From contig QPGO01000143.1 in the NCBI GenBank assembly GCA_008632985.1, forward strand, positions 62,001 to 126,000: a DNA stretch of 64,000 bases. The letters are read 5' to 3'. Each line of letters starts with the position of its first letter. Position 1 is the first letter of the stretch. Below are positions 12,187 to 62,172 of this stretch, one piece after another. The notes below the pieces were generated by a model. That model saw nothing but the letters and a program-made list of their open reading frames with translations. It was not told the DNA's origin and did no database searches. Source of the DNA: Psammoneis japonica. Taxonomy: Eukaryota. Both the position numbers and the translations under genes were made by a program.

Positions 12187-12384
12187 TTTTCCCAAACACC
12201 TCATATTGCTGAAGGACGTTAAAAGCCGTCCTTCTTTTGGCAATCGAGATCCACTTTTCTTCATACCCTACCCAATAAACTTATCATGCCATTACATGTT
12301 TTTCATTTCGTTGCAAAAAGACTTGATTCTCGCGTCTCAGTGGGTGTAGCATTTGCGCACGTCAATGAACAGATAACTCTGACA

Positions 12385-21141: not shown

Positions 21142-21143
<2 letters not shown>

Positions 21144-21183
<40 letters not shown>

Positions 21184-21265
21184 CGTCGTCGCTGTTGTCA
21201 TCACTGTTGTCGCTGTTGTTGTCGCTGTTGTCGCTGTTGTTGTCGCTGTTGTTGTTGCTGTTGTC
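21144..21265. repeat. (TTG)n / (GTC,GCT,GTT)n trinucleotide microsatellite
   Basis: About 13 pure TTG units followed by degenerate gtcgctgtt units. Would read as poly-Asn/Asp/Ser on the minus strand. Confidence 0.9.
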
Positions 21266-24200: not shown

Positions 24201-24899
24201 TGGGCTGCGCTTTGGCTCCATCTGCTGTGTGTTGTGTTCGTGCTCTAAACTTGGCATCTTTTGGGGTTGCCACCACACATGATGTTTGGTTGACATGAAG
24301 CAACTGAAGCTGGACTGCCTCCAATCAAAATCACATGCAACCAATCGGACCAGAAGCCCACACCTTTTCTTGCTCAGAAGCACTGCCCGCCAGGGGGTGC
24401 TTCGACTCAAGCGTGTGGGGGCTCTCAACCCCGCTGTGAGTGCTCCTCAGTGCGCAGGTTCAAACCATCCATTTGACTCTTTGATGTGTCTTTCTTGCTC
24501 TTTCTGTGTGCAATCAGATGCAGACTATTTTTCAATCTTGTTGGGCCAAGCAATTGCAGATTTGGCCACAGTCTCTGTCATTTTCAAAGTTTGTTTTGCA
24601 CACTGTGTGATCAAATCCTTGCTGCAGCATTGTTTTCCTCCAATCCACTGCCCACCAAGATGAAATGAGATGTTCCATAACCAAGAAGCGTTCTGCACCT
24701 GACAAGATTGGTGGCACTCATCTTGCATTTGATGAAAGATGGCAATGTGGAACGAAGCAAAGAAAGGGAAAAGTGAAAAGAGGTTTGTCACAAAGCCTTT
24801 AACTTATGGGCACTGCGCAATCCCAGCAGTCCGCGCCGTAGACTTCTACGTGTCTCTCACTGTCGCGTCATCGTTGGGGGTTGGGGGCCATCATGGGCT

Positions 24900-24984: not shown

Positions 24985-25510
24985 ATGGATCAAGTGCGTC
25001 GCGAGGTCAGGTGTCTCAGGCACAGGGAGTCTCGCGTAGACGGACTGATGACAAGCCCGCTGCATGTCAAGACTTCACAAGACTTTGTTCTCCCTCGCTG
25101 ATGCTGCCATGCAATTCCTGTTGAAGTAAAGTATTTATTCATCTTTTAATGCTATTTTTCTGAGACAAAACATTCATGCTACCGGTACATTGCATGATGT
25201 TGGACGTGCACTACTGGTAGTTCAACCTTCCACAGAGATTCTGAGTATTCCCATTCAGTGTCCATCCCCGGAAGTCACTTAAAAATGAAGATATGAAATA
25301 TGAAATGGAAATGTTCAAACGTACGCCGGTGAGGCTCGGCTCCTCATCACCATTCCCAATGCACCCTACAATAACGACACGAGATGAAAAGGTTCTGTTC
25401 AAACAGAGTCTGGTCTCGGCTCCCTCTGCCTGTCCACAAAACAAACAACAAGTTATACGAAACGAAAAAAGAGTCCTCTCCCTCTTTGGTTGTGCCATTG
25501 TCACACGATT

Positions 25511-27276
25511 TTACTTTTCCCAGTATGCAGCGTATCGGGTTTTGCCATTGGCAACAGCACCCGTGACAGCGCCAGTGGTCCAACCGTTACTGATCCTATT
25601 ATTCCAGTGGGTTTGGTATCCTCCACCGGTGAGCCGTGCTTGGCAAAGACACTAGGCATGGCCGAGGAAGCCCAGATTGCAGAGTAGTAAATCGATCCGT
25701 TGTGCTCGTAGCTGTTGAGGTATATAAGACGACGGCCAGCTGCCTTGTTTGCATTAAAGTTGGCTTGATACTGTGCCGAGCTTTGAAAGGACTTGGCGTG
25801 CCAACTACCGATGGAACCCTTGGTGTACACGGCCGCGTATACAAGAACCCCATTGACAGACGTTGGAGAGATGACTCGGGGACGCCAACCGGCTTTTGTC
25901 CAAGCGTTAAAGATGGCCTGGTGAGCCGCCGCAGACTTGTCGTGGTATGTTAGTGTTTGGGGTACGGATGCGCCCTTTTGGAAGATTCCAACGTAGCGCA
26001 CATTGTTACCGACATTGTAGGTGTCGATGTGGACCAGTTCAAAACCCTGTGCACCATAGGCAATCTTCTTTTGGCTCAACTGTGCCTTGGTCAGACTGCG
26101 GTGAGAAAACCAGGACACACTTGGATTCTTGTTGGGATGGTATACGACGTTGAAAACCGCCTTGCCATCTCGGCCAAAGCCATCGTTCCAGTCCATGCGG
26201 TAGCCGCAAGTCGATGCTGCGTTGAAGTCTTCTTGAAACTTGTTGTCCGCAAGACCGTGACGGGCATACTCTCCCCAACCAGGACGAACTAGCGGGACTT
26301 TGTACAAAGTACCGGCAACGAAGAACTGATTTCCTGGAATACCGCAAATGCGGGGAACGCGGTTCTTGCCCTTGATGTAGCCACCGGCGGGTATAATCGG
26401 ATCAGAGAGATCGTCTGGAACAGCAACCTCAAAATGAAGGTGGTCTCCACTAGCACAACCAATGTCGCTTTCAATGCCAATGAACTGTCCAACAGACACC
26501 TTGTCTCCGACCGACAGTCCGGCATTGACACTGGCACTGTTCTGTGCGAGATGGCTGTACTTGGTCCACTCGCCGTTCTTGTGGGCAATCCATACGTAGT
26601 TATTGTTCTTGCAGCCGCCATTCACATTGTGTGAGTCTTCAATGAACTTGATCGTGCCACTCTGTGCTGCGACGATCTCGTAGGGTCCGCCCGACTTACC
26701 GGACATATCAATTCGATTCTTTGGGGTGTGAGTAAGGTGGTCACGATTCACCCTGACAGTGACACCGGGCTGGTAGGGAATGGCATAAAGTCCCTTCGAA
26801 GGGGGGCGGTGGCGAGGACCCCTTATGACGTTCCCGAGAAGCGGGTTCTCGCGGTCGATTTTACGAATAGGTAGCTCTTTCAGTTGGCCAGATAAACTGT
26901 CAGATTCATCCTTCCATGTCCAAGTTAAAAAAGTGTGCGAGTTCAACGGAAACAAATGAATGAGCGAGTGAGTCAACCAGGGAAGAGCTCTAAAGAAGCT
27001 CACACCCAAGCGCTGCAGTACTGTACTTGCGAATGATAGACGGTACTTACCAGAAAATCTAGGTTGCCTTCATTTGCTTTCTCGATATCAAATGTCACGT
27101 CACGCTGTGGATTGGCATAAAAAGAGGCTGTTAGTACAGCAGGGGTTGTTTGGTCATGGTTGCGCCACGCTCAACCCAGACGAGAAGCTCACCTTCCGAA
27201 GCCCTTCTGCATCTTCCGCTGCGGTAGAAGCGGTGAAGAGGAAGATCGTGATTGTCAATGCTGCAATCGTCTTCAT
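25511..27276 (-). CDS. Secreted M23 metallopeptidase with C-terminal bacterial tandem repeats (BTRD1/polyglycine-hydrolase-like); 2 introns, frameshift near 25630
   Basis: Signal MKTIAALTITIFLFTASTAA; introns 27192-27105 and 27050-26911. M23 motifs HTPKNRID, KYSHL, GDKVSVGQFIG, GDHLHFEV. Five repeats of about 50 aa such as WHAKSFQSSAQYQANFNANKAAGRRLIYLNSY…YSAIW; the last repeat ends …TRYAAYWEK* in a shifted frame. Confidence 0.85.
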
Positions 27277-27779
27277 GATGTTGCTCGTCGTCCCTTCTCA
27301 AGTTGCAGAGTTATAACGCGGTTACCTCTTTTCCAGCATTGATATTTCTGAGAGAGGAAGTATGAGAAGGAAGGAAAAACAAAGGTTATTCTCTTTTTTT
27401 GGTGACTGCCAGCAGACACTTCAAGTTGAAGCGGAGGCTAGCATAAATGTTTCAAAACACTTACTAGAGACTATGCCGGCATGATAGCGAAGAAATTCTT
27501 TTTTCTCCTCATCTGTTGAAGCATGCACTGTAGGGCCCTATGGTCTGTTGGTGGGATGAATTTGCCCGAATAATTGTTTCTAAACAATTAAGGACGGAAT
27601 ATTTTAAAATAAAATCTGAATACTTTTTATCGATTCTGAAGAGCTTTGCTGCATTTTCAAGTACAGACATCAGCAAATGTACATCCTTGCCACCGATCGC
27701 GAATCACGATTCACATCTTCAACTGCAACCGCCAACATGACTGAAAAATGCGACATTTCCCTGCAGCATGTAGCGAGCG

Positions 27780-29340
27780 AGAGAAAGGGATGGATGGCGG
27801 CATTTTGCATCCAATGCAAATGACTTTGTGTTAAATGATCTTTTCTTTCCGTGCTGGAGAGTCATCGCTGGCACAGAGAAATTGTGTGGGCCAGAGGTCA
27901 AGGAAAACAATGTGTGCGCCCCGACTTCCAGCACACCGCAAGTTTGCAGGAAGCGACTCTTGCAGTGCTGCCCCTCACCAAGAGCCATGTCATTGCACGT
28001 GCAGAGTGAAGTGCGCTGGGCAAGCAGGGCTTCACCTGGCTTGCAGCAGCTGAAGTTGTCAGCACCTGGATGCCGCTGCTCTGCAGTGCATTGGTGCGCT
28101 GCAGCTGGTGCTAAGATATGATCAAATGCCTTGTGTGCACACTCTTTGGAAGAAGAGTGATTTTCTCAATGAAAAGCACAGGTGCCCCTGCCAATGACAC
28201 AGCGCATGCACAGCATGAGGGCAGCTGCAGCCGCTTTCTGCCTTGTGTGATGACACAACTGGTGCTGCCAGGCTGTTGCACAAGAGCTTGTTTTTTGCAT
28301 GTGCGCTGTTTGCCTCTGTGTGTCACATGGTGCGTGATGTGCTCCAGCCCCACCCCAGCTGAGCAGGACTGAGCATGTGACATGGGCCCACAAAGCTCCC
28401 CGTTTGCGAGCTCTGTGCAGCTCAGCAATGCATTGGTGTGGCCAATGTGTGCATTTGTCCTCAATGCCCAAATGAATGACTGTGTTTGTGGTGCAACCAC
28501 ACCTCTCAATGCTCAAAGTTTTTGAAGCAAATTCATCAAGAATTGCGCTGTTGTGTGCAAAAAAATGTCAGAGTTGTCGAGCAGATGACCCAACAACTGC
28601 TTTGTGAAGTTGCACCAAAGTGCCAGCAAAGTCATGCAAAACACATGTGCATGACATGCAGCATGTCTCAAGAGCTTGTCAATGTTGCAGCTCAGCAGCA
28701 TGAGGTCCCACCAAGAGCTGGAACACACCACATGCATTTCTGCACACAGCAGCACTTTGCAAAATTGTTCGCAAGCTCCGCAGCTGTTTTGCAAAGCCAA
28801 AGGCCATTCATTGTGTGGCCACTTTTGAGAACAAAAATCAGCTCTTTGGGCATGTTCTTCAATTTCTGAAGAAGAGAGAAAAAAGAAACAACAAAAGTGG
28901 CACACACGTTTGTCAAGCATGTGGAAGAGCGGGGCTGGGCGACAGCGTCATTTCTCTGCCTCTTTTCCTGCCAGCATTTGTTGGCTTGCTTGCTGCAATG
29001 CAAGTTTGCTGCAGGGCTTGCATGTGGGATTCTGTGGGCCCAATGTCACATGGAGTCCCCTGACCAATGGCTGTTGGATCGCATGCATGCGTTCTTGTTG
29101 TGTGCTGCACGTGCCCTCCTCTTTTGCTCTGTGTGCTGCTCTCTTTGGAAGCCAGAGAGGGGGCTGGCTGAGGGCTTGAATGTGAACCTGCAGTGCTTGG
29201 GTGGGGACACTCACACCCACCATGACACTTGGTCAGTCTGTCATGGAGCAGCACCCAGCATGGGACAATTGTTTGTTGAGTCTTCCATCAAACCCACAGG
29301 GCACCAGGGAGGCACAGACCACTCTGTGCGGTGTGTGCGT
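27780..29340. other. TpA-depleted hypermutated domain 3
   Basis: Almost no TA between about 27840 and 29339 (only around 28112-28118), with a TG/CA excess. Ends about 150 bp before the bestrophin start codon. Confidence 0.85.
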
Positions 29341-29490
29341 AGCGCGGGGCGTGGTGTCCCGATCTGTGCTCTGCGCGGCCCAGCGGCACAAGCCCGCGCG
29401 ACAACCGACGGTTTCACGATGGCCATCAGCCATCACTGTTCACGACGCCACAGCACCGCCATGAGTTGTAGAGTTAGAGGAAATCCAGCC

Positions 29491-30877
29491 ATGAGGATCC
29501 TTTTCGTTATTGCTTGCCTACCAGTTTTCTACGCGTTTGTACCGGTAACTCACTTTCTAAGTAACCGACACTACGTCCAAAACAAGCCTCATTTTTCTTT
29601 TGAAAGAAAAACAAAGAGACGTACAGAGAAGTATGCAGTGAGTGACGATACCAATTTCTCGTCCAACATTGATTCTGATGACAGTGCAGTAGACGAGATT
29701 GCATCTGCGTTGGATAGCGTTTGTGGAACAAAACCGGGCAACGTAATTCCTCCGTACAAGCCACAACGCCGATGGTTGTGGAGAAGGTGGAAAGGCACAG
29801 TTTTGCGCGAGACGTTGCCAACGGTTGCCATCAACATGCTTGTTACATTGCTCATTTGCCTATCGATTCGACACTTGACACAGTCACCATGGGCACTCGG
29901 TACCAAACCGGATCCGACCAACGCAGTCATTGCACGTCTCGGTGTCTTTGTGCAAGTGTGGAGGTATCTCATGACGCTCACGACCTTTGTCTTGACTTTC
30001 TTTTTGGGAGAAGCGTTCTTGCTATGGAAACAAATTTATACCATTGGTAGAAAAGTGCAAGGAAGACTCAATGATATTAGTATTTTGGTTGCTACTCACG
30101 CCAAACGAAACAAACAAGGTCGGTATACACAAGAATCACAGGATTTGTTAAATACGACAGCACGACACATTCGTGTATTTCATGTTTTAATGTGGGCCAG
30201 TTGTGCTCGAGACTACACCAGTTTGCTGTCACAGGAGGGCTTGAATCAAATGGTGAAACGAGAAATGTTGACAAGGGAGGAAGCCGACACTCTGGTCAGT
30301 TCAAAGTTGCCAGCCGGACAACGACACAATGCGCTATTGGAATGGATTGTGATTCGCATTCAAACTGCACGACAAAAGGGCCTCTTGGAGGAGAGTGCTG
30401 GACATGGTTTTGAACAAGTCTTTTTGGACAAGGTTTGCACCTTAAGAGGTACTTATGCGACGATTGGCGATGTCATGGACGGTCGAATGCCACTTTGCTA
30501 CGCTCACATGGTAAGTTGTCAATCAGAGTGAGCTGCAGATGCTCCGTTCCGCTATAATACAGGCGTCCTAACTTTGATACTACTTCTATTTATTGCAGGT
30601 TCAAGTATTGGTTGATGGCTTTTTGTTTTGTGCGCCACTGGCCCTTTTTGCCGAGTTGGGCGTCTGGTCGGTGCTGTCGATTGGTTTCCTAACATTTTTC
30701 TATTCCGGATTATTGGACTTGGCCAAGGTGTTTTTAGATCCGCTCGACAATGAAGACTACTCGCAGGAGAGTGCCGTTAAGATTGATTTGTCCGTATTGA
30801 TTCGTGAAACCAACGACGGATCGGTTCGATGGAAGAATGGAGTCGAGACTTTACCATCCACTGTCCTTGAAAGCTAA
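29491..30877 (+). CDS. Bestrophin-family anion channel, probably plastid-targeted; intron 30511-30598
   Basis: Bipartite presequence MRILFVIACLPVFYA-FVP (ASAFAP-like), WKGTVL, TLTTFVLTFFL, VQGRLND, MPLCYAHM|VQVLVD, FLDPLDNED. Confidence 0.85.
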
Positions 30878-39925: not shown

Positions 39926-40687
39926 TCAAGCCAACGATAATTCTTCCAATGGGAGTCGATTCTCAAAGCGCTCGCTCAGTGGTTTCTTTCGAGATGACCT
40001 CTTTGGCTTTTCTCTGGAATAAATTTCAAAGATTTGGTTTTTGAGGGGATTGGCGGAGCCAACCGACACGCAATCCCCATCGCTTTGATCCGAAAATGAA
40101 GAGCAAGACGAGGCTGATAGTTTTCGAGCGGTCCGTTTCACTAACTTTCTAGTGCACGAACACGAGGTCGCCCAAACCTGCAGAGCCACTTCACACTTTC
40201 TTGTTCGAACGTTCAAGTCCAGGTGATTCTTGCACCATCTCTTCATGGCTCGAGCCAAGTCATCGGCTTTGTACTTGTGCATTTTGACAAACTTCCGAAT
40301 GGTTGTAATGTTGTAGTGACGTAGGAACTCTACCTGCCATGGTCTGAGGATCTGTTCAAGCTCAACAGTCGATCCATCATCCTTGTTGTAAGTAGCAATG
40401 ATGCTACTGTTTTCATCATTGTCATTGTTTTCCGGTTGCTGCTTGGCAAGGAGCATTGCATGCTTTCCACACCGGCAAGGGAGAAACTGCGGAAAGATGA
40501 TTTCCACGTCGCATTGATCATTTGTCAAGAGAGGTTTTTGGCACGGGCAGGGTAGATTGCCTTCAAGCGCAGTAGCATCCTCGGATGGATCATCTTGAAA
40601 CTCGATATCCTCCGGTAAAAGCTTGTTTTCATTGTCTTCCCAGATCGAAGAAAAGGTTGGTTCATTGTGAATGGCTTGTTGCTTCAT
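39926..40687 (-). CDS. Hypothetical protein
   Basis: 253-codon ORF with natural composition (ILRPWQVEFLRHYNI…); no recognised domain. Confidence 0.6.
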   Translation of the reverse strand: MKQQAIHNEPTFSSIWEDNENKLLPEDIEFQDDPSEDATALEGNLPCPCQKPLLTNDQCDVEIIFPQFLPCRCGKHAMLLAKQQPENNDNDENSSIIATYNKDDGSTVELEQILRPWQVEFLRHYNITTIRKFVKMHKYKADDLARAMKRWCKNHLDLNVRTRKCEVALQVWATSCSCTRKLVKRTARKLSASSCSSFSDQSDGDCVSVGSANPLKNQIFEIYSREKPKRSSRKKPLSERFENRLPLEELSLA

Positions 40688-41262
40688 GGTGTTTTGAGAA
40701 GTTGTGAAAAAGTGGGAGACTTGTGATTTTTCTCGTTTTACAGGAAAATGCTCCGTAGAACAGAGAGCCAAAGTGTGTGAATGTGTGAGTGTCAGAAACA
40801 AGAAGTTCTGTTCATGTATGTGCTCCCATGAGTTGCTTTGTTCTGTTTTTTCATGCCGTTGCGGTATTGGTGTGGGGGACCAAAGCTCTGAAGCTTTTTT
40901 CTCAAGACCACTTTGTCGAAATTACATAAAGGAAGCTTTTGATGTGAATCTCGTAATTATAGAAACGACGATTGTGCTTGAAGATATGGTCATTATGTCG
41001 TTTCTTATCGCGATCGATTGTTGCGTTGATGGTTGGGATGATGTTCTTTGTTTAACAGTAGTCATTTCAGCGTCTGTCCAGAACTTGACATCTAAATATT
41101 TCAGTGTAATTGGAATGTCTATGTTGTGACCATATTTAGGGGGGAGGTCATCTGTTCGTCTGTCCAAAATCCATGATTGCCTAATTATTTCATTGTGATG
41201 GAAATGTCCCTTTTGTGACAGCTTTTTGCTCGAGCGAAGATAGAATGTGACTCCAGACTGGT

Positions 41263-41444
41263 TGAATGAGATAGGCACATGTACTCTATGGCCGAGTGTG
41301 CCCTCTCTGATGTGTGTACATTAACTAACGCATTAGACATTCAAGAAGCCGTTAGAAGTCAGTTCCGATCAGCGATTGCACTGATCGGGTCTCTTCTCGG
41401 TTCTCTCACAACTTTTGTCAAGTCATCTCAAGCTAGATCTTGCA
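41263..41444 (+). repeat. 5' LTR
   Basis: tgaatgag…tcttgca; 15 mismatches to the 3' LTR by manual alignment. Confidence 0.95.
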
Positions 41445-41890
41445 CTGCAATTGCAGTCGTTGTTGTGGCTTGTTCATTGCATTGTCAACTTTATGACAAC
41501 GCGAAGAGTGTCATCGAGAAGAGAGAAAATTTGTTTGCGAGCTCGAGCAGAAAATTTCATTCGAAGTAGATCAGAATCGCAGTGCAATTGCACTCGTGAA
41601 ATTGGCGATTCGGAGCAGCGGTTGTTTGAACTCGAAGCTCGTGTTGCCACCATTGAATTCGTCATTGTTTGATTGTTGATTGTTCTCGTTGTGTGGATCA
41701 ACTGGGAACGCCTTGTTTTGTTTGTCTTTTGTGGATTGTTGATTGTTTGATCGCTGAAATTGTTCATCGCCATGTGTCAAGAAGCCTTGGAGAAAGCCTG
41801 TGTTGAGCATGAGACCAAATTCGTGGACTCTGAATTGCAGGAGGTGAAGCTCACTCAAACCTTTTTGATTGTGGCACTAAACTTTCAAAA

Positions 41891-42952
41891 ATGTGTCCTG
41901 TTTTCACAGGAGAGCATGGAATTGAATCATTGTTGCATGTGGAGGACAGGTTCCGGAAGGTGGCAAGACAGCTGGATTGTGATGCCGGAACAGAGTTGTT
42001 TGATGCTTTCCAGGATTGTCTCCAAGGTGCTGTGGAGGTGAAATGGCAGAACATTGCTGCGGGTGTCCAACAGAATCAACGGACGGCAGCTTGATTTGAT
42101 CAGGCTGTCTTGGCCTGTCATCCACGCTGCGTGAAACTGACAGCTCGTGACACAATGAAGATGCATTTGCCTGCTTGCAAAAAGCCTTGCTCAGCAGAAT
42201 CTGAAACTCACATTGATCGCATGGAAACATTGTTCCATTGTGCTGGCCGTTTGCCTGGAGCCGTTCCTGAACTTACAGAGCAGGAGCAGAAAAATGTCAT
42301 CTTTTGTGCCTTCCCTTTGACCTGGCAGCAGTCCTGCATTCGTGCGGGCAAGAACCTTGTCACGGATTCTATGGCAGACATCCAAGCCTGCATGAGCAAC
42401 GAGAAGGTGTTCGCCAATGGTCAAGACAACAAGAAACGCAAGTCCAACAATGGCAATGGAGGGAACTCCAGCAACAAAAAGGGCAGCCGTGACAAGAAGG
42501 ACAACAAGGGCCAACCGAAAGCAAATGATCCATGTCCGGTCCCGTGGCACCATGGAAGGCACACATGGGGCCAGTGTTGTGACAACCCAAACAATCCTGA
42601 CTGTCGTGGGCCTCAGAACCGTGGCGGTCGAGGAGGAGGCCGTGGCGGTGGAGGTCGTGGCGGAGGTCGTTTCCAAGGAGGCCGTGGTCAAGGCCATGGA
42701 GGCGGTGGATGCTTTGGTGGTCATGGCAACCAGAACCAAGGAGGTCGTGGTGCCCATCATAACAACAACAATGGACATCAGAACAACAATGGCAACCAAG
42801 GTGGTGGTCAACATTGTTGTGGTGAAAACAACAACCATGGAGGCCAAGGACAGGCCAACGGATGTGCTGCTCAAGCAGACAATGTGAACAATGACAACCA
42901 GGCTCGAGAAGCTTCTCGTGGTGATGTGCACCATTTTGACATGATCGGATGA
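41891..42952 (+). pseudogene. Gypsy gag relic (start approximate)
   Basis: Zn-knuckle-like CPVPWHHGRHTWGQC and RGG/Asn/Gly-rich tail; in-frame stop at about 42092. Confidence 0.7.
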
Positions 42953-43274
42953 GGCCCTCCAAGATGCGGAGGTGTGGTGAGGTTTCAGCCAGATGGGCAG
43001 TTTCCTCGGCAGTTCTGAGAAGAAGGAGCTGAGTGCTCCAGAGCTGAATGCTCCCAATTGCCTGTGAAAGAAGCATTTGTTGATGAAAATGATTGTGTTT
43101 TGCCTGAATGAAATGATGAATGTTTTGCTTTTGATTGTTTTGAAAATCCTGACGAATTGTTGCCTGTTGAATTTGAAAATGCTGCAGAAAATTACATGAA
43201 TGAAGAGGGGGTGTGTTTGATCAAGACGCATTTGAACACAACATTCCTCTCCCCAAAATGAACTTGCAAGTCTC

Positions 43275-46200
43275 GTGCACCGCGTTGGTCCCATCTACAC
43301 TGCTTGTTGCAAAATCAATCCAACAGATGAGTCGAGTCGAGTGATGCGTGTTTTGTTAGATTTGGGTGGTTTTCACACTGTGATCTGTCTCAAGTTTCAC
43401 CTCGAGGAGCCGTGCCATCTGTTGATGAACATGGAGTCCGAGCTTTTCAAACCATGGCAGGTCCTTTCCAATCGGGTCATTGGGTGGCCTTAAACTGGGA
43501 GGATTGACGGCTGTGTGGCTCACGCATTCGATGCTCCGTGTGCGCATGACATCATTTTGGGTCAAGATTTCTTGGACAAGATTGGTCTCAACCTGAGCTA
43601 CGATGCAAGGATGCTGCGATGGCTGGACCGTGTGATCCCAATGAAGGAACCTCGTCATTGGTCCAAATCCTGCAATTGGCATGTGGCTTTAGACCGAATG
43701 GATGAATTTGATGAAGATTGCAAAGACGAGTCGGGCTGTGGGTGCGACGACGGATGTGACACCTGCACGCTCGACACCAAGCATGAAGCAACGAATCCAG
43801 TGGAAGTGGTTCGGAACTTGGACCATCTCACGGAAGAACAAAAGAAGAAGCTGTCAGCGGTGTTGGAAAAATGTTCAACTTTGTTTGACGGAACGTTGGG
43901 GCACTGTCCTCATGAAAAGGTGCACCTTGAAGTGGACGAAAATGCTGTTCCACATCACTCAAAACTGTTTCCTGTTGCTCGAGTTAATGAAGAAGCGCTC
44001 AAAAAGGAATTGAAGCATTCAGTGAATCTCGGCACACTTCGACCATGTGGACCTGCGGAATGGGCAGCCGGTGCCTTTGTTGCTCCAAAGAAGGACGGAC
44101 GAGTGCGATGGGCATCCGATTTTTGGGAGCTCAACAAGGTCCTCAAACAGAAAGTGTGTCCTTTGCCAGTTGTTCAAGATGTGCTGCAGTGGAGAGCGGG
44201 CTACAAATTCTTCACGAAACTGGATCTCACTGTGCTCTACTGCAATTTGGAGCTGGACGATGAAAGCAAGGAGCTCGCTGCGATTGCAACTCCGCACGGG
44301 AAATTCCAGCATTGTCGCATGGCCATGGGATTAAAGCCAGCTCCAGATGTTGCTCAGTCCATTGTTGAAAAGATTCCACATGGTTTGGATGTTGAAACTT
44401 ACATTGATGACATTGGCGCGTTTGACACTGACTTTGATTGCCATCTCTCTTGTCTTGACAAGGTGCTGCATCATCTCAAGGAGAATGGTTTGAAAGTCAA
44501 TCCATCAAAATGCGAGTGGTGTGTTCAAGAAACCAATTTTCCAGGGCATTGGCTTGCTCCAACTGGTGTTAAACCATGGAAAAAGAAGGTCGAGGCGATC
44601 CTGCGAATGCAACCTCCACGGAACACTACACAGCTCCGATCGTTTCTCCGTGCAGTGACCTGCTGTCGCAACATTGTGGCCTCGCCGTTCTCACCTGCTT
44701 GCACCTCTGACTGAATTGACAGGCAAGAGTCAGTTCCAATGGACAGAATCATGTCAGAAAGCATTCGAGGAGATGAAGGCAGTGATCACGGCAGAAGCGT
44801 TGATGGCCTGCCCTAACCACAACCCACCTTTCCATGTCTGCACCGATGCATCAGACTGCCAGATGGGTGCCGCTGTCATTCAAGATGGCAAACCTGTGGC
44901 GCACTGGTCTAAGAAGCTCTCGGCGGCTCAACGCAGCTGTTCAACAATGGAGAAGGAACTCCTGGCCGTCGTCATGTGCTTCAAGGAATTTCACTCAATG
45001 TTGCTCGGTGCTGAAATCACTGTTCACACTGATCACAAAAACCTCACCTTTCGCACTTTGAATGTGCAGCACGTCCTTTGTTGGTGACTGTTCCTCAAAG
45101 ATTTTGCACCTGCATTTGCGCATGTCGAAGGCAAGGACAACGTGCTTGCCGACTGTTTTTCTTGTCCACCACGCATGGATCTGCCTTCGGAGGGAAAGAG
45201 CCTTGGGCTGAGCAGCAAACGCAAAGGAAAAATTGTTCATTTTGAAAAGTTGGATTCCAGGGAACTGAGCAGGGCCGAGGAAGAGGAAGATTTGGAGTTG
45301 GGCGCTTGCAGGTTCAAATGTTGCCGTGCTCCTGTTGATCCTTCTGATGAGTCTCACACCGCCTTTTCCTCTCTGCTTGACGAGCCCAAATTGTTTGAGT
45401 GCTTTTTGAATTGCCCGACACTGGACGAAATGCAGAATCCCACTGAGACACCAAGGATGCAACAGTTCCAGTTCGAAGACCTCCAACTGAACCAGCAAAG
45501 ACAACAAAATCCGCAGCAGTTTGTGGTCAAGATTGTGAACCATCATCCCCTGATTTGTTGTCGTTTGCATCTGAATGATCCACCTGGAGCCTGGAAAATT
45601 TGCGTTCTTGCTGCGTTGTTGCCGGATGTCATTGCGTGGCATTGTTGTGCATTGGGCCATTGTGGAGTCGTGCGATTGCATGAAAGTGTTTGGACTCACA
45701 TGTGTCATCCTGCATTGCGTCGACGTTGTAATGAATTTGTTTGCGACACATGTCAACGATTTAAACAACTGGGTCCTGGACATGGAGAATTGCCTCAACG
45801 TCAAGCGCCATCAGCTCCATGGATGGAAGCAGCAGTTGATCTCATTGGACCGTGGAAAATGCCGATTCAAGATCAAGAGATTGAATTTAGCACTCTCACT
45901 TGCGTTGATGCTGTCACTGGATTGACTGAACTCGTGCGCACTGACAACAAAACTTCTCAGCATGTGACCAACAAGTTTCGCAATCTTTGGTCAGCTCGTT
46001 GTCCCAGACTGAATCGATGCATCCATGACAATGGTGGAGAATTCATTGGTTGGGAATTTCAAATGCCACTAAATCAAGCGGGCATTGCTGATGCACCGAC
46101 GACATCTCGAAATCCTGCAGCCAACTCCATTTGTGAGCGAATGCACCAGACGGTGGCCAACATCTTGTGCACTGTGGTTGTCGCCAACCCACCTTTGAAT

Positions 46201-46600
46201 GTTCAACAGGCTGAGTAGATTGTGGACGATGACCTTGCTGCAGCCTCTTGTGCTTTGCGATGCTCCCACTCAAGGTCTGTGGGTGTTTCAAGTGGAGCTC
46301 CAGTGTTTCAGCGTGATGTGATTTTGGACCTGCCTGTTGTTTCCGACCTTGCTGCAATGCAAGCCAACCGACAAGTGTTGATCGACGAGAACCTGCGACG
46401 ACAGAATGCGAAGCGCCATTCCTGTGATTATCTGGTTGGTCAAGATGCGTTGGTCAAGTCGGTGGATCCTTCAAAGTTGGAAGAACGAGCCCATGGTCCG
46501 TTTCGAATTGTGCAAGTCCACGCCAACGGGACTGTTTCAGTGCTGTGAGCACCGCACGTCATTGAGCGAATTAATGTTCGCCGCGTGGTGCCGCATCGGA
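43275..46600 (+). pseudogene. Gypsy pol relic (protease, RT, RNase H, integrase)
   Basis: VLLDLGG and DIILGQDFL (PR); KKDGRVR, TKLDL, TYIDD (RT); TDASD, EKELLA, TDHKNL (RNase H); H-H-C-C, VDLIGP, HDNGGEF, ERMH, GPF (IN). Carries stops and frameshifts. Confidence 0.9.
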
Positions 46601-46712
46601 GTTGAGGGTTTCTTCCCAACGTCTGGGTTCCCTTCTCCATGCGCATTGGGTTTGAATTTTAGTCAAGTGGTTCCAATGGTGCGCGTGTTCCTTGCGCCAT
46701 GGAAGGGAAGAG

Positions 46713-46894
46713 TGAATGAGACAGGCACATGCACTCTATGGCCGAGTGTGCCCTCTCTGATGTGTGCACACTAAATGATGAATTGGATGTTCAAGAAGCC
46801 GTCAGAAGTCAGTTCCGATCAGCGATTGTGCTGATCGGGTTTCTTCTCGGTTCTCTCACAACTTTTGTCAAGTCATCTCAAGCTAGATCTTGCA
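46713..46894 (+). repeat. 3' LTR
   Basis: Preceded by the PPT and followed by TSD CTGGT. Confidence 0.95.
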
Positions 46895-47426
46895 CTGGTG
46901 CTCCTAAAGTCACTGACAGCACTACATAGAGAATAGTCTCTAGAGCTACAGCAGCCAGACAAATCCACTGGTAGAACATTGGCTCCCTAGAGTAGAATTT
47001 GTAGTCTGGTCCTCTCTAGAATACAAGGCGCTATGTATGCTGCGGCTTTTTTGAACGCGCCGAAGTGAGCAGCAGAGGAATGACCAACCTGGCAACATGT
47101 ATCCATTGTATTCAATGGTACAGTGACTGGCTTCCGAGACTAGAGGGCTTACTACTACTTGTGCAACAAATGCTGTAAGCTAAAAACAAAGCATTGGACG
47201 CTACAAAATTTCAGGCGATAGCAGCTGATTCTTGCTAGAATGAAAGCTTCGCACCCGATCGAGCCAACTGTCCGTTCATGGCCTATCATCAAGGAAAATT
47301 CTACTAGATTTCAATCAAAAAATAATTTGACAAAACAAATTACAACAAACACAGCACTTGTCGAGACCAACGTTATAATAACTTGTGTTTTGTTTTCATA
47401 TTACAACAACAACAACTCCTCTCTCA

Positions 47427-54298: not shown

Positions 54299-54872
54299 TC
54301 AGCAAGAGACAGCTGGCATCGTCACGTTTTTCAGGGATTTTGATTGGTTCAAAGTCGTCATACCGAACTCATGAAGTCATCATTACTTAGCGGTTCTCAA
54401 GGAGACGTGGCCTGGACCAATCAAAATGCGCCACGCAGTTCAAAGCTTACATAACAATACTGAAATGCAACGTCAAAGCAGTGTAGGATGCCACGTCAGT
54501 TGACTAAATAAAGTCGACGTCAGACCAGAACAAATCAAGAACCACAGTCTTGAATGGTTCCGAATAAATCCGGAACGTCGGAACAGGTTCTATTTATGGG
54601 ATACAAAACGCATGTGCGTCACTTACTATTCCAATTCAGTCACGTTCGTGATTCGACACAAAACTGCCACCGCCGTTTTTATAATAGCGCCACAATTCTC
54701 TTGCAAGTCGGCAGGTAAGAAACCAAAACGACAACCCTCAAGAGACGACGCGTGTGATATTGAACAATAGTTGTACAAATGACACGGTGATTCCCAGCGT
54801 TCGAGGTGCATTGCAGAAAAAGTGAGAGAATTGTCGTGACGACTCATCCTCACGCGGTTGTTTCAAAAAAGC

Positions 54873-57800
54873 ATGTACGTTCTCAAGGTCCAAAAATGGG
54901 AAATGGAAGCGGCTTTGCTCTTGTCACAAGTTTCGTATCAAGTTCAACCCATTGTAGAGAGCAAGGCATTGGATCAATTCAAGTCGAAATTTGCAGTCAT
55001 GGGTAGAGTTTTCTTTTTTTGTACCACCTTGGGACAAAAGTATGTGGTGTGTACATGTCAACGAGGAGATTGCCATGAAAGAGTTTTATTTTGTGCCTTT
55101 GCGGGAACACACTTACCGGGTGATTGGGAACAAACCAATGTCCACATTGTCCATGAAACGAATTCGGATCAAGTGGGTGCACCGGGACATGCGGGATTTT
55201 TACAACGCGCCCTTGACGTGCCACTGGAAGGAATCGAGCGGTTGGCACGAGATGCAAAAGCGACGCGTATTGTCTTTTGTGGCCATTCCTTGGGTGGAGC
55301 CGTGTCGCATTTTGTCTTGTTGCGGTGGTTGTTTGGTCGTCCGAGTAATGATAATGATCATTTTGATAAGGACAATGTCGTTTCGATTGGAATTGGTGCT
55401 CCCTTTTTTGGTGGGAGCGACATGCTACAACATATTCAACGACACGGATGGATCGATTGCTTTGTTACGCTTGTCAATGGGAACGATCCCTTACCCCGCG
55501 TCATGAATCTTGCTGCGACTCTGGTCGAAAGCACGGCGTCTTGTATGTTTTCGACCCTCTTGAATGCGTGTCGTGCCTTTCTCAACAACAACCATACCAA
55601 TTCCGTTGCTGATATTGTTGGAAATCTGGTGCAAGAAATTCAAAAGGCTTCGCAACAAGATTACTCATACTTGACATCCTATCTACCCATTGGTCATTAT
55701 GTAAACTTTATTGTGGATGGACAAATCGATGTGAGTTGTGATACGTACCACGTGTCGGATCTTTTGGGTCCAGCCCAACTACTGGGTGCAAAGCCAAGCG
55801 TGATTAATGGCGTTTTGGACAAGAATGCACTCGCGCATCATGACATTCAAGCCTACCACAATATTGTTCAAGCAAATGATTCTATACTGACTAAAGTGTG
55901 TACCAAACACTTTGACGGTCCGCAAGGAGGGTATTATTTTGGAAATAGTGACAAGGACGTTTCTCCCTTGTCGTCGTCCAGTTTGGTACCTGTGGTGCAC
56001 GAGATTTCCTGTGAAACCTTTACAAGTCACAAACGACAGTATTGTCGCATTGTCAAGTATTGTGGGTGTAATCTCGATTTTATCGCCGACCATGCGATAA
56101 CCATGGATGTCGATCAATTGGATTCGCATTGGAGTTGCGATATGGTTCTCGAGAGCCGCGTCAGTCGACGAAGCACAAGTGACCTTGTTGTGGAGCAACT
56201 ATTAAAGCAAGACAATGATAATGAGGCAATAGCAACCGCCGTGAGATCCAAGCCCAATCACGATATAGTCATTTTGCTTCGATCCGACGTGGTGGAGGAC
56301 GGAGGAGGCCCCGCCACAACCCATCCAGTCTTGACACGTACCAATTGCCACTCGGCATCCGACATGCCACAGGATCCACTCTCGTTTTATGGTGGACAAT
56401 TTTTTCTCGATACGCAACAGCATGCGTGGATTATGAACAAGCTCTTTTCCAATAATCAGCTTTACAAGAAATTGGAAGAACTTGCGGCGCTTGTGGAAGA
56501 ATATGAGTGTGTTGACGACACTCAAGTTATAGTCATGCAGCCGGAATGGAAAGGCTTTGAAGACGTTGGAACGCCTTGCAAAACGGACATCCCGCGAAAA
56601 GACTCGGACTACCGCCGCTCACGAGATGAACTCTACAATTGGATTGTCCCACCAAACGGTTTGGTGGTTCGCACCAAATTGCAGACTCGAATGTCTGTCA
56701 CGGTTGTCCTCGTCTCCTTGGCAATTGGTGGAGGCATTGTTGCCACGGGAGGATTAGGAATAGTCGGTGGCTTACTCGGCTATGGAGCATCTCTCTCGGG
56801 CGGCTATGGAACAGCCACGCTCATGTTGACTAGTGCTGGAAGTGCCGCATACTTTATGCGGTCGCGACTTCGGAGCAAGTACTATGTCATGTTGGAAGAT
56901 TTGGTGAAACTATACACTGGTACTATACCAAAAACCATGTCAGAGATGGACTTGGAAGAAATTCTACTCTTTGCCGAGTCGGAATTCATGGCGAACCTTG
57001 ACAGTGGCAAGCTGAAACGAACGGAAATCCCGCTTTTTGACCAATACGAGGCTGCGTCTCAAAAAAGCTTCAAACAACGCGTCAACCTAATTCGTTTGAT
57101 CCATGGCATCAAAAAGGAGCGAACGAATGGCCAAGTGGTGGCGATTTGTGGTCCTCGGGATTCTGGTAAAACAACGCTAGTATCACAGCTATTGCAACGA
57201 CCAGAACTAGCCTTGTCAACCGGTTTGGCGGGAGGTCGAGATGAAACACGACAGGTGACTCCACACTCCATTTCCAACGTGTCTGGCTATGTGATTTTGG
57301 ACACGCCCGGCTTGACGGGGCCCGAACAAGGGATCCGGGGCAAATTTGACCACGCTGCTTTGAATCTGTCCTCTACTTTTGTGTACATTCGAGAATACGA
57401 GGGACTCCCAACCGAGGTTGACATTCTTACTCTCAAGCGAATTTTGGAATGTTCGGCTCGTAGTCAAAACCCCAAGGTATTGGTGTGTTTGAATCGAGCC
57501 AAGCTCAAGCTCACACAAGACGCTGCCGGTGAAATATTTCACATCAGCGCCGCGGTGGAAAAGAAAAAGTGGTTGGCTCGACTCTACCAGCTCCGATCAA
57601 GCTTGAAAATGCCAACGTGGGTGAGCCAGCTTTTGTCACGCAGCAGCATTCAGGTTGAGTTTGTCGAATTAAACGGCGACTGTACGTTGGAGGCTCAACT
57701 CATGAAGGACGATCGAACCAAGGGTATTTGGACGGCGTCTTCGATTGGAGAATGGATTGCCAAATCTGTGGCTCCCCAAGACGGAACGTCCACGGAAAGT

Positions 57801-57938
57801 TGGGCACGCTTTGCAGCGCACTTGAATAGCTTTAACTACAGCAAATGGCAAAAGGGTGTAAGAGAGCACAGAAAGGCACAACAGGAGGAAATAGAAGAGG
57901 AAACCGAGAAGCTAATGGCGTCATTCGCCAGGTTCTGA
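54873..57938 (+). CDS. Lipase class 3 + Gly-rich TM hairpin + P-loop GTPase fusion protein
   Basis: AFAGT, HAGF, VFCGHSLGGAVS, VNGNDPLPR, HDIQAY (lipase); VTVVLVSLAIGGGIVATGGLGIVGGLLG; GPRDSGKTT, LDTPG, VCLNRA (GTPase G1/G3/G4). Intronless, about 1020 aa. Confidence 0.85.
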   Translation: MYVLKVQKWEMEAALLLSQVSYQVQPIVESKALDQFKSKFAVMGRVFFFCTTLGQKYVVCTCQRGDCHERVLFCAFAGTHLPGDWEQTNVHIVHETNSDQVGAPGHAGFLQRALDVPLEGIERLARDAKATRIVFCGHSLGGAVSHFVLLRWLFGRPSNDNDHFDKDNVVSIGIGAPFFGGSDMLQHIQRHGWIDCFVTLVNGNDPLPRVMNLAATLVESTASCMFSTLLNACRAFLNNNHTNSVADIVGNLVQEIQKASQQDYSYLTSYLPIGHYVNFIVDGQIDVSCDTYHVSDLLGPAQLLGAKPSVINGVLDKNALAHHDIQAYHNIVQANDSILTKVCTKHFDGPQGGYYFGNSDKDVSPLSSSSLVPVVHEISCETFTSHKRQYCRIVKYCGCNLDFIADHAITMDVDQLDSHWSCDMVLESRVSRRSTSDLVVEQLLKQDNDNEAIATAVRSKPNHDIVILLRSDVVEDGGGPATTHPVLTRTNCHSASDMPQDPLSFYGGQFFLDTQQHAWIMNKLFSNNQLYKKLEELAALVEEYECVDDTQVIVMQPEWKGFEDVGTPCKTDIPRKDSDYRRSRDELYNWIVPPNGLVVRTKLQTRMSVTVVLVSLAIGGGIVATGGLGIVGGLLGYGASLSGGYGTATLMLTSAGSAAYFMRSRLRSKYYVMLEDLVKLYTGTIPKTMSEMDLEEILLFAESEFMANLDSGKLKRTEIPLFDQYEAASQKSFKQRVNLIRLIHGIKKERTNGQVVAICGPRDSGKTTLVSQLLQRPELALSTGLAGGRDETRQVTPHSISNVSGYVILDTPGLTGPEQGIRGKFDHAALNLSSTFVYIREYEGLPTEVDILTLKRILECSARSQNPKVLVCLNRAKLKLTQDAAGEIFHISAAVEKKKWLARLYQLRSSLKMPTWVSQLLSRSSIQVEFVELNGDCTLEAQLMKDDRTKGIWTASSIGEWIAKSVAPQDGTSTESWARFAAHLNSFNYSKWQKGVREHRKAQQEEIEEETEKLMASFARF

Positions 57939-61336: not shown

Positions 61337-62172
61337 CAATGGGAATCATTCGAAAATGTCGCATGAGTCACAATGTTTTACACAGGGAAAAACACAAAAT
61401 TGTGCAGAAATGTACACAATGTCATACGAGAGAGTGATTAGAGCTAACAACTTTTCGGGAACTGAACAAGCCATGTGCACTGGTGCAAAAATCACGTAGA
61501 TATTCTACGTAGAAAAAATTATAAAAATTAGGGTTTGGGCCGATTTTTTTCTCCTGCTTCTACCGTGCTTCTCTGCTCCACCGACGCCTCAAGGAATCGT
61601 TTTCCCCTGAAACCATTGACACTTTACATGATGACTTTTACATGAGTAACACGATTCTGTGCGTGAACACTTCAAAATTCCATTTTCAGAAATTCGATCA
61701 ACACTTCACCACGGCACCACCACGGTAAACATTTTCCAATGATGGAATTTTGCCGAACGGTGGACATCGTCGTGTTTGTCATCAAAAAGTAAGTACGCAA
61801 AGTGTCAACCGTTATGACTGAAATCGATTCCTTGAGGTCGTGGCCTATTTTTCGCAAAGCACGGGAAAAGCACGACGAACAAGATATTCTACGCGAATTT
61901 TCTACGTGAGTTTTGTACCAGAAATCGGCCCAAACCCTGTTTTTCGGGACTCATAACCCCTGCACATGGCTTATTGAAATGCTATCTGATCGACGGTATT
62001 GGCCTTCACTATGTGTGAATCAAAATACCGTCGATCAGATAGCATTTCAATTGATTTCCCAAGAAGTTGATATTCATATACGGACTGATGGACAGACTCA
62101 TTATAATTATTTTTGGTACTGTCCTACACAATTTCTACGTGATGACTCTGAGGACCCGAATGATTCCTATTG
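61337..62172. mobile_element. MITE-like element (about 330 bp plus nested insertion) with 16-bp TIRs and internal 28-bp hairpin
   Basis: CAATGGGAATCATTCG … CGAATGATTCCTATTG; homolog at 3715..4045; perfect inverted arms 61973-62000 / 62024-62051. Confidence 0.8.
61467..61973. mobile_element. Nested about 505-bp non-autonomous DNA element
   Basis: Absent from the homologous copy at about 3910 (empty site gggaactga|g|ttgaaatg). TIR aagccatgtgca/tgcacatggctt plus subterminal inverted blocks. Confidence 0.8.

Follow-up and report, generated by a model that had tools for sequence, protein, structure and literature searches.

Positions 41263-46894 of the window, by which we mean the whole 64,000-nucleotide stretch analysed here, hold a degenerate LTR retrotransposon of the Ty3/gypsy type, which belongs to a high-copy family and is now dead. 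The element is bounded by a direct repeat (41263-41447 and 46713-46897, 92% identity over 185 nt), its parts follow the Ty3/gypsy order gag-PR-RT-RH-INT, with the integrase region after the reverse transcriptase, and the following features were assigned to it and its borders:

41258..41262, plus strand: target-site duplication, left copy CTGGT (the same 5-mer lies directly outside both LTRs)
41263..41444, plus strand: 5' LTR, 182 bp, TG..CA, with 9 TA sites (repeat alignment and raw sequence)
41263..41353, plus strand: spared outer 5' LTR, 8 TA sites kept (TA list; the change-point support begins at 41354)
41365..41388, plus strand: perfect inverted repeat of 8 bp around an 8-nt loop, LTR positions 103-126 (read by eye)
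41354..46894, plus strand: TA-poor (hypermutated) tract of the element, with TA 6.0, CA 83 and TG 111 per kb
42095..42952, plus strand: gag-like open frame with a Gly/Arg/Asn-rich tail, aligning with the N-terminal part of relatives' polyproteins
43494..44714, plus strand: protease end and reverse transcriptase frame (RVT_1, E=4.2e-17, 43494-44711)
44659..45087, plus strand: RNase H frame (RT_RNaseH_2, E=4.7e-27, 44659-45084); a frameshift near 44675 leads into it
45088-46218 and 46219-46548, plus strand: integrase-region frames with a stop between them, aligning with the C-terminal part of relatives' polyproteins
46701..46712, plus strand: polypurine tract, a purine run abutting the 3' LTR (raw sequence)
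46713..46894, plus strand: 3' LTR, 182 bp, TG..CA, with 3 TA sites left (repeat alignment and raw sequence)
46895..46899, plus strand: target-site duplication, right copy CTGGT, a perfect 5-bp match to the left copy

The proteins nearest to the RT-RNase H frames are gypsy-type RT-RNase H proteins of diatoms and metagenomes, while Pfam searches returned no match for the gag-like frame (42095..42952) and no family for 45088-46215, where the frame is heavily substituted. That the family is high-copy is seen in the word depth among contigs (1900-4800 over the element vs 56-58 in its flanks; 3366 contigs match), and transitions make up 914 of the 1066 differences between this copy and the family contigs. 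Judging by its sequence, the inverted repeat in the LTR (positions 103-126) is possibly an R-region hairpin; a CA/TG pair that distinguishes the LTRs at positions 117-118 sits in its loop.

The dinucleotide TA is strongly depleted in the element (observed/expected 0.11), as it is in the larger TA-poor domains of the window, most 2-kb windows of which range from 0.03 to 0.08, compared with 0.20-0.27 in 2-kb windows that straddle a domain edge and 0.43-0.73 in unique ones. CA/TG observed/expected rises to 1.5-1.9 in TA-poor DNA, and AA shows no depletion (1.29). TA depletion is not a trait of the retrotransposon family: 78 related elements from metagenomes have ratios of 0.45-1.08, and the RT region carries 7.7 TA per kb here vs 58 in 31 relatives (minimum 30.5). 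No hypermutation signature was found among the 78 environmental relatives, a set biased to intact copies. The sum of TA, CA and TG is conserved (199.6 per kb vs 195 +/- 14 in 50 relatives), even though TA itself is ~9-fold lower. On the sense strand of the element TG exceeds CA (111 vs 83 per kb), the reverse of the relatives (CA 78, TG 64 per kb), an excess that could reflect a sense-strand bias which the count of changed Tyr codons (13:9) is too small to show.

The coding region reveals the direction of change. Of the 13 conserved Tyr columns in the RT frame, 10 are altered (5 Cys, 4 His, 1 Phe), compared with 63 of 219 other conserved columns, and none of the 10 conserved Cys/His columns in that frame has turned into Tyr. 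Over the whole polyprotein, the 36 conserved Tyr columns now hold 13 Cys, 9 His, 5 Phe and 4 other residues, and 5 are still Tyr. The share of Tyr aligned to Cys or His is 60% here; in the 78 relatives its median is 4% and it reaches at most 10%. Repeat pairs give the same polarity. In three pairs that straddle the edge of a TA-poor domain, the TA is found in the outside copy every time (27:0; 16:0 and 5:0 in the two pairs besides the LTRs), a short repeat copy outside a TA-poor domain is untouched, and a pair with both copies outside such domains has TA differences in a ratio of 1:3. These observations support TA as the ancestral state and CA/TG as derived, that is, A:T>G:C transitions at TpA. 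The sequence-only reading had proposed the same direction, TA to CA/TG, and it is borne out by the 22 of 36 Tyr columns, the conserved sum of TA, CA and TG, and the straddling pairs. At the LTR sites themselves the direction is carried over from what the coding region and the remaining repeat pairs show.

The opposite polarity, in which a C-to-T process like repeat-induced point mutation (RIP) would have turned CA/TG into TA within the outer 5' LTR, draws on the fact that an LTR pair alone has no outgroup and that TA versus CA/TG is the classical RIP difference. It is contradicted by polarity and composition and has next to no probability: TA is strongly depleted in the element, not enriched, conserved Tyr became Cys/His and no conserved Cys/His became Tyr, there are no TA-enriched tracts in the window, and all three straddling pairs keep TA in the copy with normal-TA surroundings. 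The likeness to ascomycete RIP lies elsewhere, in a DNA-level, dinucleotide-specific transition hypermutation that inactivates inserted transposons, leaves sharp compositional domains and inflates LTR divergence. RIP, which requires duplicated DNA and a pre-meiotic stage, converts CpA to TpA and yields AT-rich, TA-rich DNA, whereas here TpA became CpA/TpG.

Alignment of the two 182-bp LTRs exactly reproduced the 15 differences and the classes into which the sequence-only reading had sorted them. They lie at LTR positions 10, 20, 55, 59, 63, 65, 67, 69, 73, 76, 77, 91, 117, 118 and 129. At six of them the 5' LTR reads TA and the 3' LTR either CA (10, 20, 55, 91) or TG (65, 73); four form two CA-versus-TG pairs (76-77, 117-118), one is CG versus TG (67), and four are other changes (59 T/C, 63 C/A, 69 C/A, 129 C/T). 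The 5' LTR retains nine TA sites (10, 20, 25, 55, 60, 64, 72, 91 and 172) and the 3' LTR three (25, 60 and 172), so the TAs found in only one LTR are oriented 6:0 towards the 5' copy (binomial p=0.03). Within positions 1-91, the 5' LTR has kept eight TA and lost none, compared with two kept and six lost in the 3' LTR (Fisher p=0.007). The claim that retained TAs lie only in the outer ~90 bp of the 5' LTR holds for the six 5'-only sites at 10-91, but not for the shared TA at 172, in the inner half. With the paired terminal repeats of 11 related metagenome elements as controls, TA-type changes account for 6 of 13 LTR events here vs 27 of 331 in controls (Fisher p=5e-4; 17 of 152 and p=0.003 with locus L030 left out); the control pairs have TA orientations of 12:15 and no CA<>TG pairs.

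Both strands of the element were hit, as indicated by the Cys:His ratio of 13:9 at Tyr codons and by the four CA and two TG at LTR sites, which excludes editing of the sense RNA. Since the LTRs were identical at integration and now differ 6:0 at TA, the mutation arose in DNA after integration, in agreement with the earlier claim on timing. These data support a DNA-level, post-integration, chromosomal process acting in bounded tracts whose origin is foreign or mobile. We also considered ADAR-type A-to-I editing of element RNA, fixed by reverse transcription before integration; ADARs prefer a 5' U, as noted in a preprint on Bigelowiella natans (Mettrop et al., bioRxiv 10.64898/2026.01.13.699255), and TG does exceed CA on the sense strand. 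As the sole cause this is contradicted by the LTR differences and the both-strand changes, and we regard it as highly improbable: both LTRs of a new copy derive from one RNA, editing of sense RNA gives TA>TG only, whereas TA>CA occurs about equally often (His 9, Cys 13; 4 of 6 LTR sites), and the same TA loss occurs in non-coding, non-retroelement domains and in short repeats. ADAR/APOBEC editing of retroelements that retrotransposition then fixes (PMC4866542) likewise produces clustered transitions with a neighbour preference in LTR elements, but acts before integration on one strand and leaves the LTRs identical, unlike the differing LTRs and two-stranded changes seen here.

The limits of the TA-poor domains are sharp. 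A step accounts for all eight domain edges in the window just as well as a logistic gradient does (log-likelihood gain <=0.64), the fitted gradient width being ~0 at six edges and 50 and 167 bp at the other two (gains 0.64 and 0.03). In the element, the left change-point is best placed at 41568, with a support (41354-41645) that leaves out the LTR start at 41263, and the right one at 46880, with a support (46828-46923) that takes in the element end at 46894; from 46905 on, TA is back at normal density. Sparing is one-sided, with only the 5' end offset, by at least ~91 bp, and the 3' edge coinciding with the element end. The sequence-only reading had the process fade at the domain boundary; put generally, mutation would weaken by degrees as a repeat domain nears its edge, leaving the outermost ~90 bp beside unique DNA under-mutated. 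The six 5'-only TAs, all at LTR positions 10-91 adjoining unique DNA, and the left change-point inside the element fit this view, but the edge fits and the right edge at the LTR end do not bear it out. Moreover, if the CA/TG pair at 117-118 came from TA, the 3' LTR took a hit 65 bp short of its end, the TAs retained in the 3' LTR (25, 60, 172) have no positional trend, and the proposal rests on one element; we judge it unlikely.

Alternatively, the mutated tract could be a transcription unit, targeted co-transcriptionally through nascent RNA or the open transcription bubble, in which case the 5' LTR's U3, lying ahead of the start site, would never have been exposed, and the same U3 in the 3' LTR would have been transcribed and mutated. 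One-sided sparing that ends at LTR position 91 agrees with this, as do both change-point supports, which would suit a unit starting downstream of 91 and ending within the 3' LTR; a TA-rich patch at 55-75 is followed ~30 bp on by a YYANWYY-type match at 97-103, a weak signal of which about one is expected by chance in 182 bp. Against it, the Tyr codons have no clear strand bias (13:9), the U5 of the 3' LTR offers a single TA site (172) that is kept in both LTRs, too few for the mirror-image pattern expected there to show, and the hypermutated giant-virus region of B. natans is described as transcriptionally silent (Mettrop et al.). We consider this explanation possible, though far from probable.

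The outer 5' LTR may instead have escaped locally, through the open chromatin of a divergent gene's promoter, a short gene-conversion tract, or an assembly or polishing mix-up from a less mutated copy. A minus-strand open frame at 39929-40921, which has two weak homologues (E=4e-12 and 3e-8), lies ~340 bp from the LTR and faces it, a high-copy family offers abundant donors for conversion or mis-polishing, and 9 of the 15 differences, including both transversions, fall in a tract-like patch of 23 bp (positions 55-77). However, the intact target-site duplication shows that no inter-element recombination took place, the TA-type differences at 10, 20 and 91 lie outside the patch, and a difference-free public-run contig reaching in from the unique flank covers the first 50 bp of the 5' LTR, confirming the TAs at 10, 20 and 25. 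Within the LTRs, such bridging is limited to these 50 bp and the last 27 bp of the 3' LTR. Such an escape seems doubtful to us. The 23-bp patch is not predicted by a simple site-by-site process, and assembly within a high-copy repeat may contain polishing errors; at 46841 (3' LTR position 129) all six public-run contigs covering the site read C, the 5' LTR state, leaving that difference uncorroborated. The 5' offset may stem from the transcription unit, a neighbouring promoter or gene conversion.

The process depends on a context wider than the dinucleotide: in the TA-poor domains R-TA-Y is erased, and TTAA and CTAA/TTAG are partly refractory. Against two independent baselines, survival is 0-0.013 for ATAC, ATAT and GTAC, 0.30-0.58 for TTAA and 0.17-0.41 for CTAA/TTAG. 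The spared outer 5' LTR includes two GTAC and two ATAG/CTAT-class sites, classes that survive at 0-0.03 in TA-poor domains.

The reading we favour, with a probability of roughly 80%, is that a Ty3/gypsy copy, now dead, in a diatom-like nuclear genome was hit after integration by TpA-specific DNA mutation bearing the B. natans signature. A process changing A:T to G:C on either strand, and thus TpA to TpG or CpA, would have converted ~90% of the element's TA sites and turned most conserved Tyr codons into Cys/His codons. It would have halted sharply at the 3' end of the element and at least ~91 bp inside its 5' end, placing the 3' LTR within the mutated tract, where it presumably lost six of the eight TA that the spared outer 5' LTR retains; because the LTRs were identical at integration, the pair recorded the mutation. 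In mutation-accumulation lines of B. natans, changes in integrated viral DNA are almost only A>G/T>C, all on TpA, and RT and DDE domains are over-represented among the low-TpA genes (Mettrop et al., bioRxiv 10.64898/2026.01.13.699255); a hallmark of this type of hypermutation would be a line-measured rate orders of magnitude higher in the tract than genome-wide. Both systems change TpA to TpG or CpA by strand, in foreign DNA tracts only, leaving a long-term footprint in which TpA is low and CpA+TpG is high. They differ in host (a diatom-like stramenopile here, a rhizarian there), in target (a high-copy LTR retrotransposon and unrecognisable repeat domains vs single-copy giant-virus and virophage inserts) and in extent (TA observed/expected 0.03-0.11, near saturation, vs 0.45 in the B. 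natans viral region), and the B. natans process was measured in lines, whereas ours is known from its sequence footprint. The main text of that preprint mentions neither LTRs nor wider sequence context nor diatoms. A DNA-mutating defence mark of this kind (TA to CA/TG) has so far been reported in just one other alga, and the TpA hypermutation signature now extends to a diatom-like stramenopile, near saturation on transposon domains.

The chemistry would be either adenine deamination or a mutagenic thymine modification. A mutagenic mark on the T of the palindromic TpA would produce exactly TpA>CpA/TpG on both strands, and 5-hydroxymethyluracil mispairs with G. In dinoflagellates this thymine modification is enriched on repeats and silences transposons; it lies mainly in TA and TC dinucleotides in Crypthecodinium cohnii, according to older work cited there, and has no sequence preference in Breviolum minutum (PMC11572971; PMC11071213). 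For B. natans, an ADAT2-like DNA adenine deaminase has been proposed (Mettrop et al.).

As the sequence-only reading had anticipated, LTR-divergence dating overestimates the age of the element: raw divergence is 8.2% (15/182), vs the 2.2% (4/182) left without TA-type, CA/TG-pair and CpG sites. Methylation and decay of CpG in diatom transposons is similar in that a palindromic dinucleotide is lost to TG/CA in transposon domains, but the target dinucleotide and the base change here are others (PMC9998398). CG observed/expected is 0.08-0.19 in the older TA-poor domains at 14001-24000 and only mildly low (0.68) in the young element, where TA already stands at 0.11, indicating that the TA process is faster or earlier than CG loss.

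The region at 41263-46894 is a dead LTR retrotransposon of the Ty3/gypsy type. Its ends form a direct repeat of 185 nt with 92% identity (41263-41447 and 46713-46897), and alignment together with the raw sequence delimits the following features:

41258-41262 and 46895-46899, perfect 5-bp target-site duplication flanking both LTRs
41263-41444, 5' LTR, 182 bp, TG..CA
46701-46712, purine run immediately 5' of the 3' LTR
46713-46894, 3' LTR, 182 bp, TG..CA

Between the LTRs lie, in this order, broken gag-like, protease/reverse transcriptase (RT), RNase H and integrase-region frames, with a frameshift near 44675; Pfam recognized RVT_1 (E=4.2e-17) and RT_RNaseH_2 (E=4.7e-27) and assigned no family to the integrase-region frame. 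The proteins closest to the element's RT come from metagenomes (identity up to 54-65%), and the closest named ones from the diatoms Cylindrotheca closterium and Cyclotella cryptica. Elsewhere in the window, the best named match to a unique frame of 1032 aa (54840-57935) is from the diatom Seminavis robusta (43%), with another relative at 78%, and a bHLH-PAS frame is similar to oomycete and diatom clusters. These similarities place the window in nuclear DNA of a diatom-like stramenopile, the proteins of which are not represented in the database. The element family is clearly high-copy: word depth in a public run reaches 1900-4800 over the element compared to 56-58 in its flanks (summed depth, which does not equal copy number), and 3366 contigs of this run matched the element, 490 at 99% identity or more, 759 at 95-99%, 1178 at 90-95% and 939 below 90%. 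No further copies or solo LTRs were found within the window.

The element accounts for one of four TA-poor domains in the window, all of them sharply bounded:

about 2624-6076, TA-poor domain
about 12504-24792, TA-poor domain
about 27681-29468, TA-poor domain
about 41354-46894, TA-poor domain, within the element

The observed/expected ratio of TA is 0.03-0.11 in these domains compared to 0.43-0.73 in 2-kb windows of unique DNA, and CA/TG rises to 1.5-1.9. The three domains outside the element (TA 0.03-0.27, CA/TG 1.6-1.9) are almost devoid of internal repeats. Among 146 stop-free frames of at least 75 aa in or near them, Pfam matched a single one, which encodes a RING finger and lies shortly beyond a domain edge (6080-6979), and tblastn with nine relatives of the element found no gypsy remnants there, matching only 43269-45186. 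They are probably older, doubly decayed mobile DNA; the older domains are also strongly CpG-poor (observed/expected 0.08-0.19 in 14001-24000).

The sequence-only reading had proposed that TA was lost to CA and TG, and this direction is borne out by the TA levels of related elements, by conserved tyrosine columns and by the TA+CA+TG sum. Among 78 relatives from metagenome contigs, TA observed/expected is 0.45-1.08, and the RT region carries 58 TA per kb in 31 relatives (minimum 30.5) compared to 7.7 in the element. The sum of TA, CA and TG is similar in both (195 +/- 14 per kb in 50 relatives, 199.6 in the element), indicating that lost TA reappears as CA or TG. Of 13 RT columns that are Tyr in 60% or more of 60 homologues, the element has Cys in five, His in four, Phe in one and Tyr in only three, whereas 63 of 219 other conserved RT columns are changed and none of ten conserved Cys or His columns has turned into Tyr. 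The same holds across the whole polyprotein: at 36 conserved Tyr columns defined by 32 intact relatives, the element has Cys 13 times, His nine times, Tyr and Phe five times each and other residues four times. Tyrosines align to Cys or His in 60% of cases, whereas in the 78 relatives the median is 4% and the highest value 10%. In a Tyr codon, TAY becoming TGY or CAY amounts precisely to a change of TpA into TpG or CpA, and further substitutions obey the same rule, with T-preceded Ile, Met and Thr codons becoming Val or Ala, and TTA becoming TCA. Low TA as an inherent trait of the family is ruled out by the normal TA and Tyr retention of the relatives (one distant related locus in a viral collection was left out of these comparisons). 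The four closest environmental relatives (loci L001, L003, L012 and L064) show lower TA observed/expected than all others (0.45-0.47) and a CA/TG of 1.22-1.45, yet their Tyr retention is normal (60-67%); this pattern reflects either the composition of the family or the TpA process in a very mild form. Repair synthesis of the Pol-eta type, with its WA motif, was also set aside, as AA is not depleted and transversions are not raised among copies: differences fall at 14-35 places per transversion class compared to 193-278 per transition class, and 914 of the 1066 places at which public-run contigs differ from the element are transitions.

Site-by-site classification of the aligned LTRs returned the 15 differences in exactly the classes that had been read from the sequence: six sites with TA in the 5' LTR and CA or TG in the 3' LTR (LTR positions 10, 20, 55, 65, 73 and 91), two CA-versus-TG pairs (76-77 and 117-118), one CG versus TG (67) and four others (59, 63, 69 and 129). 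The 5' LTR has nine TA sites and the 3' LTR three, those at 25, 60 and 172 being common to both. As a control we used the terminal-repeat pairs of 11 relatives on metagenome contigs, in which 27 of 331 differences are of the TA<>CA/TG type with an orientation of 12:15, and CA<>TG pairs are absent. In the element, six of 13 events are of the TA type, all in the same orientation (6:0), and the two CA<>TG pairs come in addition; the TA-type enrichment is significant (Fisher p=5e-4, or p=0.003 without L030, one of the metagenome loci). A TA-rich patch of 23 bp (LTR positions 55-77; 41317-41339 and 46767-46789) contains nine of the 15 differences, including both transversions, and could be a conversion tract, error-prone repair beside primary lesions or a hypervariable promoter element. 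At 46841 (LTR position 129) the assembly has T and all six public-run contigs that cover the site, among the matches listed, have C. In at least six more places in the element (42914, 43612, 43735, 45209, 45272 and 45318) every matched contig differs from the window; these and 46841 are possible assembly errors inside the repeat. LTR positions 154-155 read TG in both LTRs of the element, and three records among the matches listed suggest TA in other copies. Each LTR also contains a perfect 8-bp inverted repeat with an 8-nt loop (41365-41388 and 46815-46838), the loop of which holds the CA/TG pair at positions 117-118.

The two LTRs of a new copy are synthesized from one RNA, and the 6:0 TA-type differences must therefore have arisen in the chromosome, in agreement with the earlier proposal that mutation followed integration. 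Editing of the sense RNA would turn sense-strand TA into TG alone, but TA to CA is nearly as common, with nine His compared to 13 Cys in the polyprotein and four of the six LTR sites. When strand bias is instead taken from dinucleotide totals against distant relatives, family-specific composition is inseparable from mutation. Repeats that straddle a domain edge gave the same polarity. A dispersed repeat with about 83% identity, one copy inside a domain (3720-4045) and the other outside and inverted (61337-62167), has TA in the outside copy at 16 sites and the reverse at none, along with three CA<>TG pairs, and a second pair (12165-12380 outside, 12927-13150 inside) shows 5:0, compared to 1:3 for a pair with both copies outside domains. 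Together with the LTRs the orientation is 27:0, and the inside/outside pairs also show that repeats lying outside a domain escape mutation. The outside copy at 12165-12380 retains five TA and six CG that are missing from 12927-13150, and the left edge of the 12-kb domain coincides exactly with a cluster of local repeats in direct and inverted orientation (11924-13150).

The proposed fading of the process toward the domain boundary was not supported. With each TA, CA or TG treated as one trial, a logistic transition fitted at eight domain edges never improved on a step by more than 0.64 log-likelihood units, and six of the fitted widths were about zero. For the element, the left change-point lies at 41568 (support 41354-41645), inside the element and excluding the LTR start, and the right one at 46880 (support 46828-46923), including the LTR end, with TA density normal from 46905 on. 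The data thus show an offset confined to the 5' end, 91 bp or longer, rather than a gradient. Nor are the surviving TA sites random, since flanking bases matter: measured against two baselines (unique DNA of the window and 380 kb of related elements), survival in TA-poor domains is 0-0.013 for the R-TA-Y classes ATAC, ATAT and GTAC, 0.007-0.19 for mixed classes, 0.17-0.41 for CTAA/TTAG and 0.30-0.58 for TTAA. The outer 5' LTR retains two GTAC and two ATAG/CTAT-class sites, and because it keeps such erasure-prone contexts, chance survival within the mutated tract is very unlikely, which puts this stretch outside it. The offset could stem from gene conversion or a polishing artefact, as suggested by the clustering of nine differences, both transversions among them, at positions 55-77, but a public-run contig runs from the unique flank through position 50 of the 5' LTR without any difference, so that at least the TAs at 10, 20 and 25 are real. 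Alternatively, a divergent gene, probably present some 340 bp upstream, may protect the outer LTR, or the mutated tract may be the transcription unit of the element, hence the sparing of the 5' U3.

If the tract is the transcription unit, the 5' U3 would be spared and the DNA from the start site through the end of the 3' LTR converted, by a co-transcriptionally targeted DNA editor or through a heritable mutagenic mark on palindromic TpA, resembling CpG methylation; the system would strongly prefer R-TA-Y over TTAA and CTAA. According to a preprint (Mettrop et al., bioRxiv 10.64898/2026.01.13.699255), two integrated viral regions in mutation-accumulation lines of Bigelowiella natans mutate about 1000-fold faster. 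Nearly all changes there are A>G/T>C, and every one of them falls on TpA; genes low in TpA are enriched for RT and DDE domains, and the authors propose an ADAT2-like DNA adenine deaminase. The signature is the same here, near saturation and in a diatom-like genome, and the main text of the preprint mentions neither diatoms nor LTRs nor the wider sequence context of TA sites. In the literature searched, TpA hypermutation of foreign DNA is described once (2026, in a chlorarachniophyte) and for neither diatoms nor LTR retrotransposons. We conclude that a mutational defence not described until 2026 recurs here in a second lineage and against a new type of target. To this the LTR pair adds clock-free internal proof that the mutations occur in the chromosome once the element has integrated, and it resolves the start and end of the mutated tract at base-pair scale. 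That diatoms, like the rhizarian Bigelowiella, carry a TpA-directed genome defence with tracts that correspond to the invader's transcription unit is a tentative reading, to which we give roughly one chance in five. If shared by two supergroup-level SAR lineages, such a defence would point to an old and widespread counterpart of repeat-induced point mutation in fungi, a functional analogue with the opposite mutation direction, and if tract limits follow transcription units, target recognition would become directly testable. As an alternative to adenine deamination, a mutagenic mark on the T of palindromic TpA, for example 5-hydroxymethyluracil, would give the same two products, and the two are inseparable by sequence alone. 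According to PMC11572971 and PMC11071213, transposons of a dinoflagellate are marked by this base and silenced by it, and earlier studies cited there place it preferentially in TA and TC. CpG methylation of diatom transposons (PMC9998398) accounts for the CpG loss in the older TA-poor domains.

The warning that LTR-divergence dating would overestimate age proved well founded. Raw divergence is 15/182 (8.2%), and without the six TA-type sites, the four CA/TG-pair positions and the CpG site it drops to 4/182 (2.2%), an inflation of about 3.7-fold, or to 3/182 with 46841 discounted; LTR-divergence ages in such genomes are thus inflated about 3- to 4-fold. Hypermutated elements also lose Pfam-detectable domains, so that repeat annotation under-calls them. 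Because TA-free DNA has few stops (TAA, TAG), long spurious frames open on both strands, which gene finders could call and which can contaminate gene sets; such frames occur at 28870-30531 and in large numbers on both strands of 12500-24700 and 41300-46900, including one of 367 aa antisense to gag (42191-43294). An open frame of 522 aa on the minus strand (25504-27069) sits in normal-TA DNA between two TA-poor domains and encodes a Peptidase_M23 domain with four polyglycine-hydrolase-like BTRD1 repeats; such an architecture is typically found in bacteria and fungi, so the gene may have been transferred.
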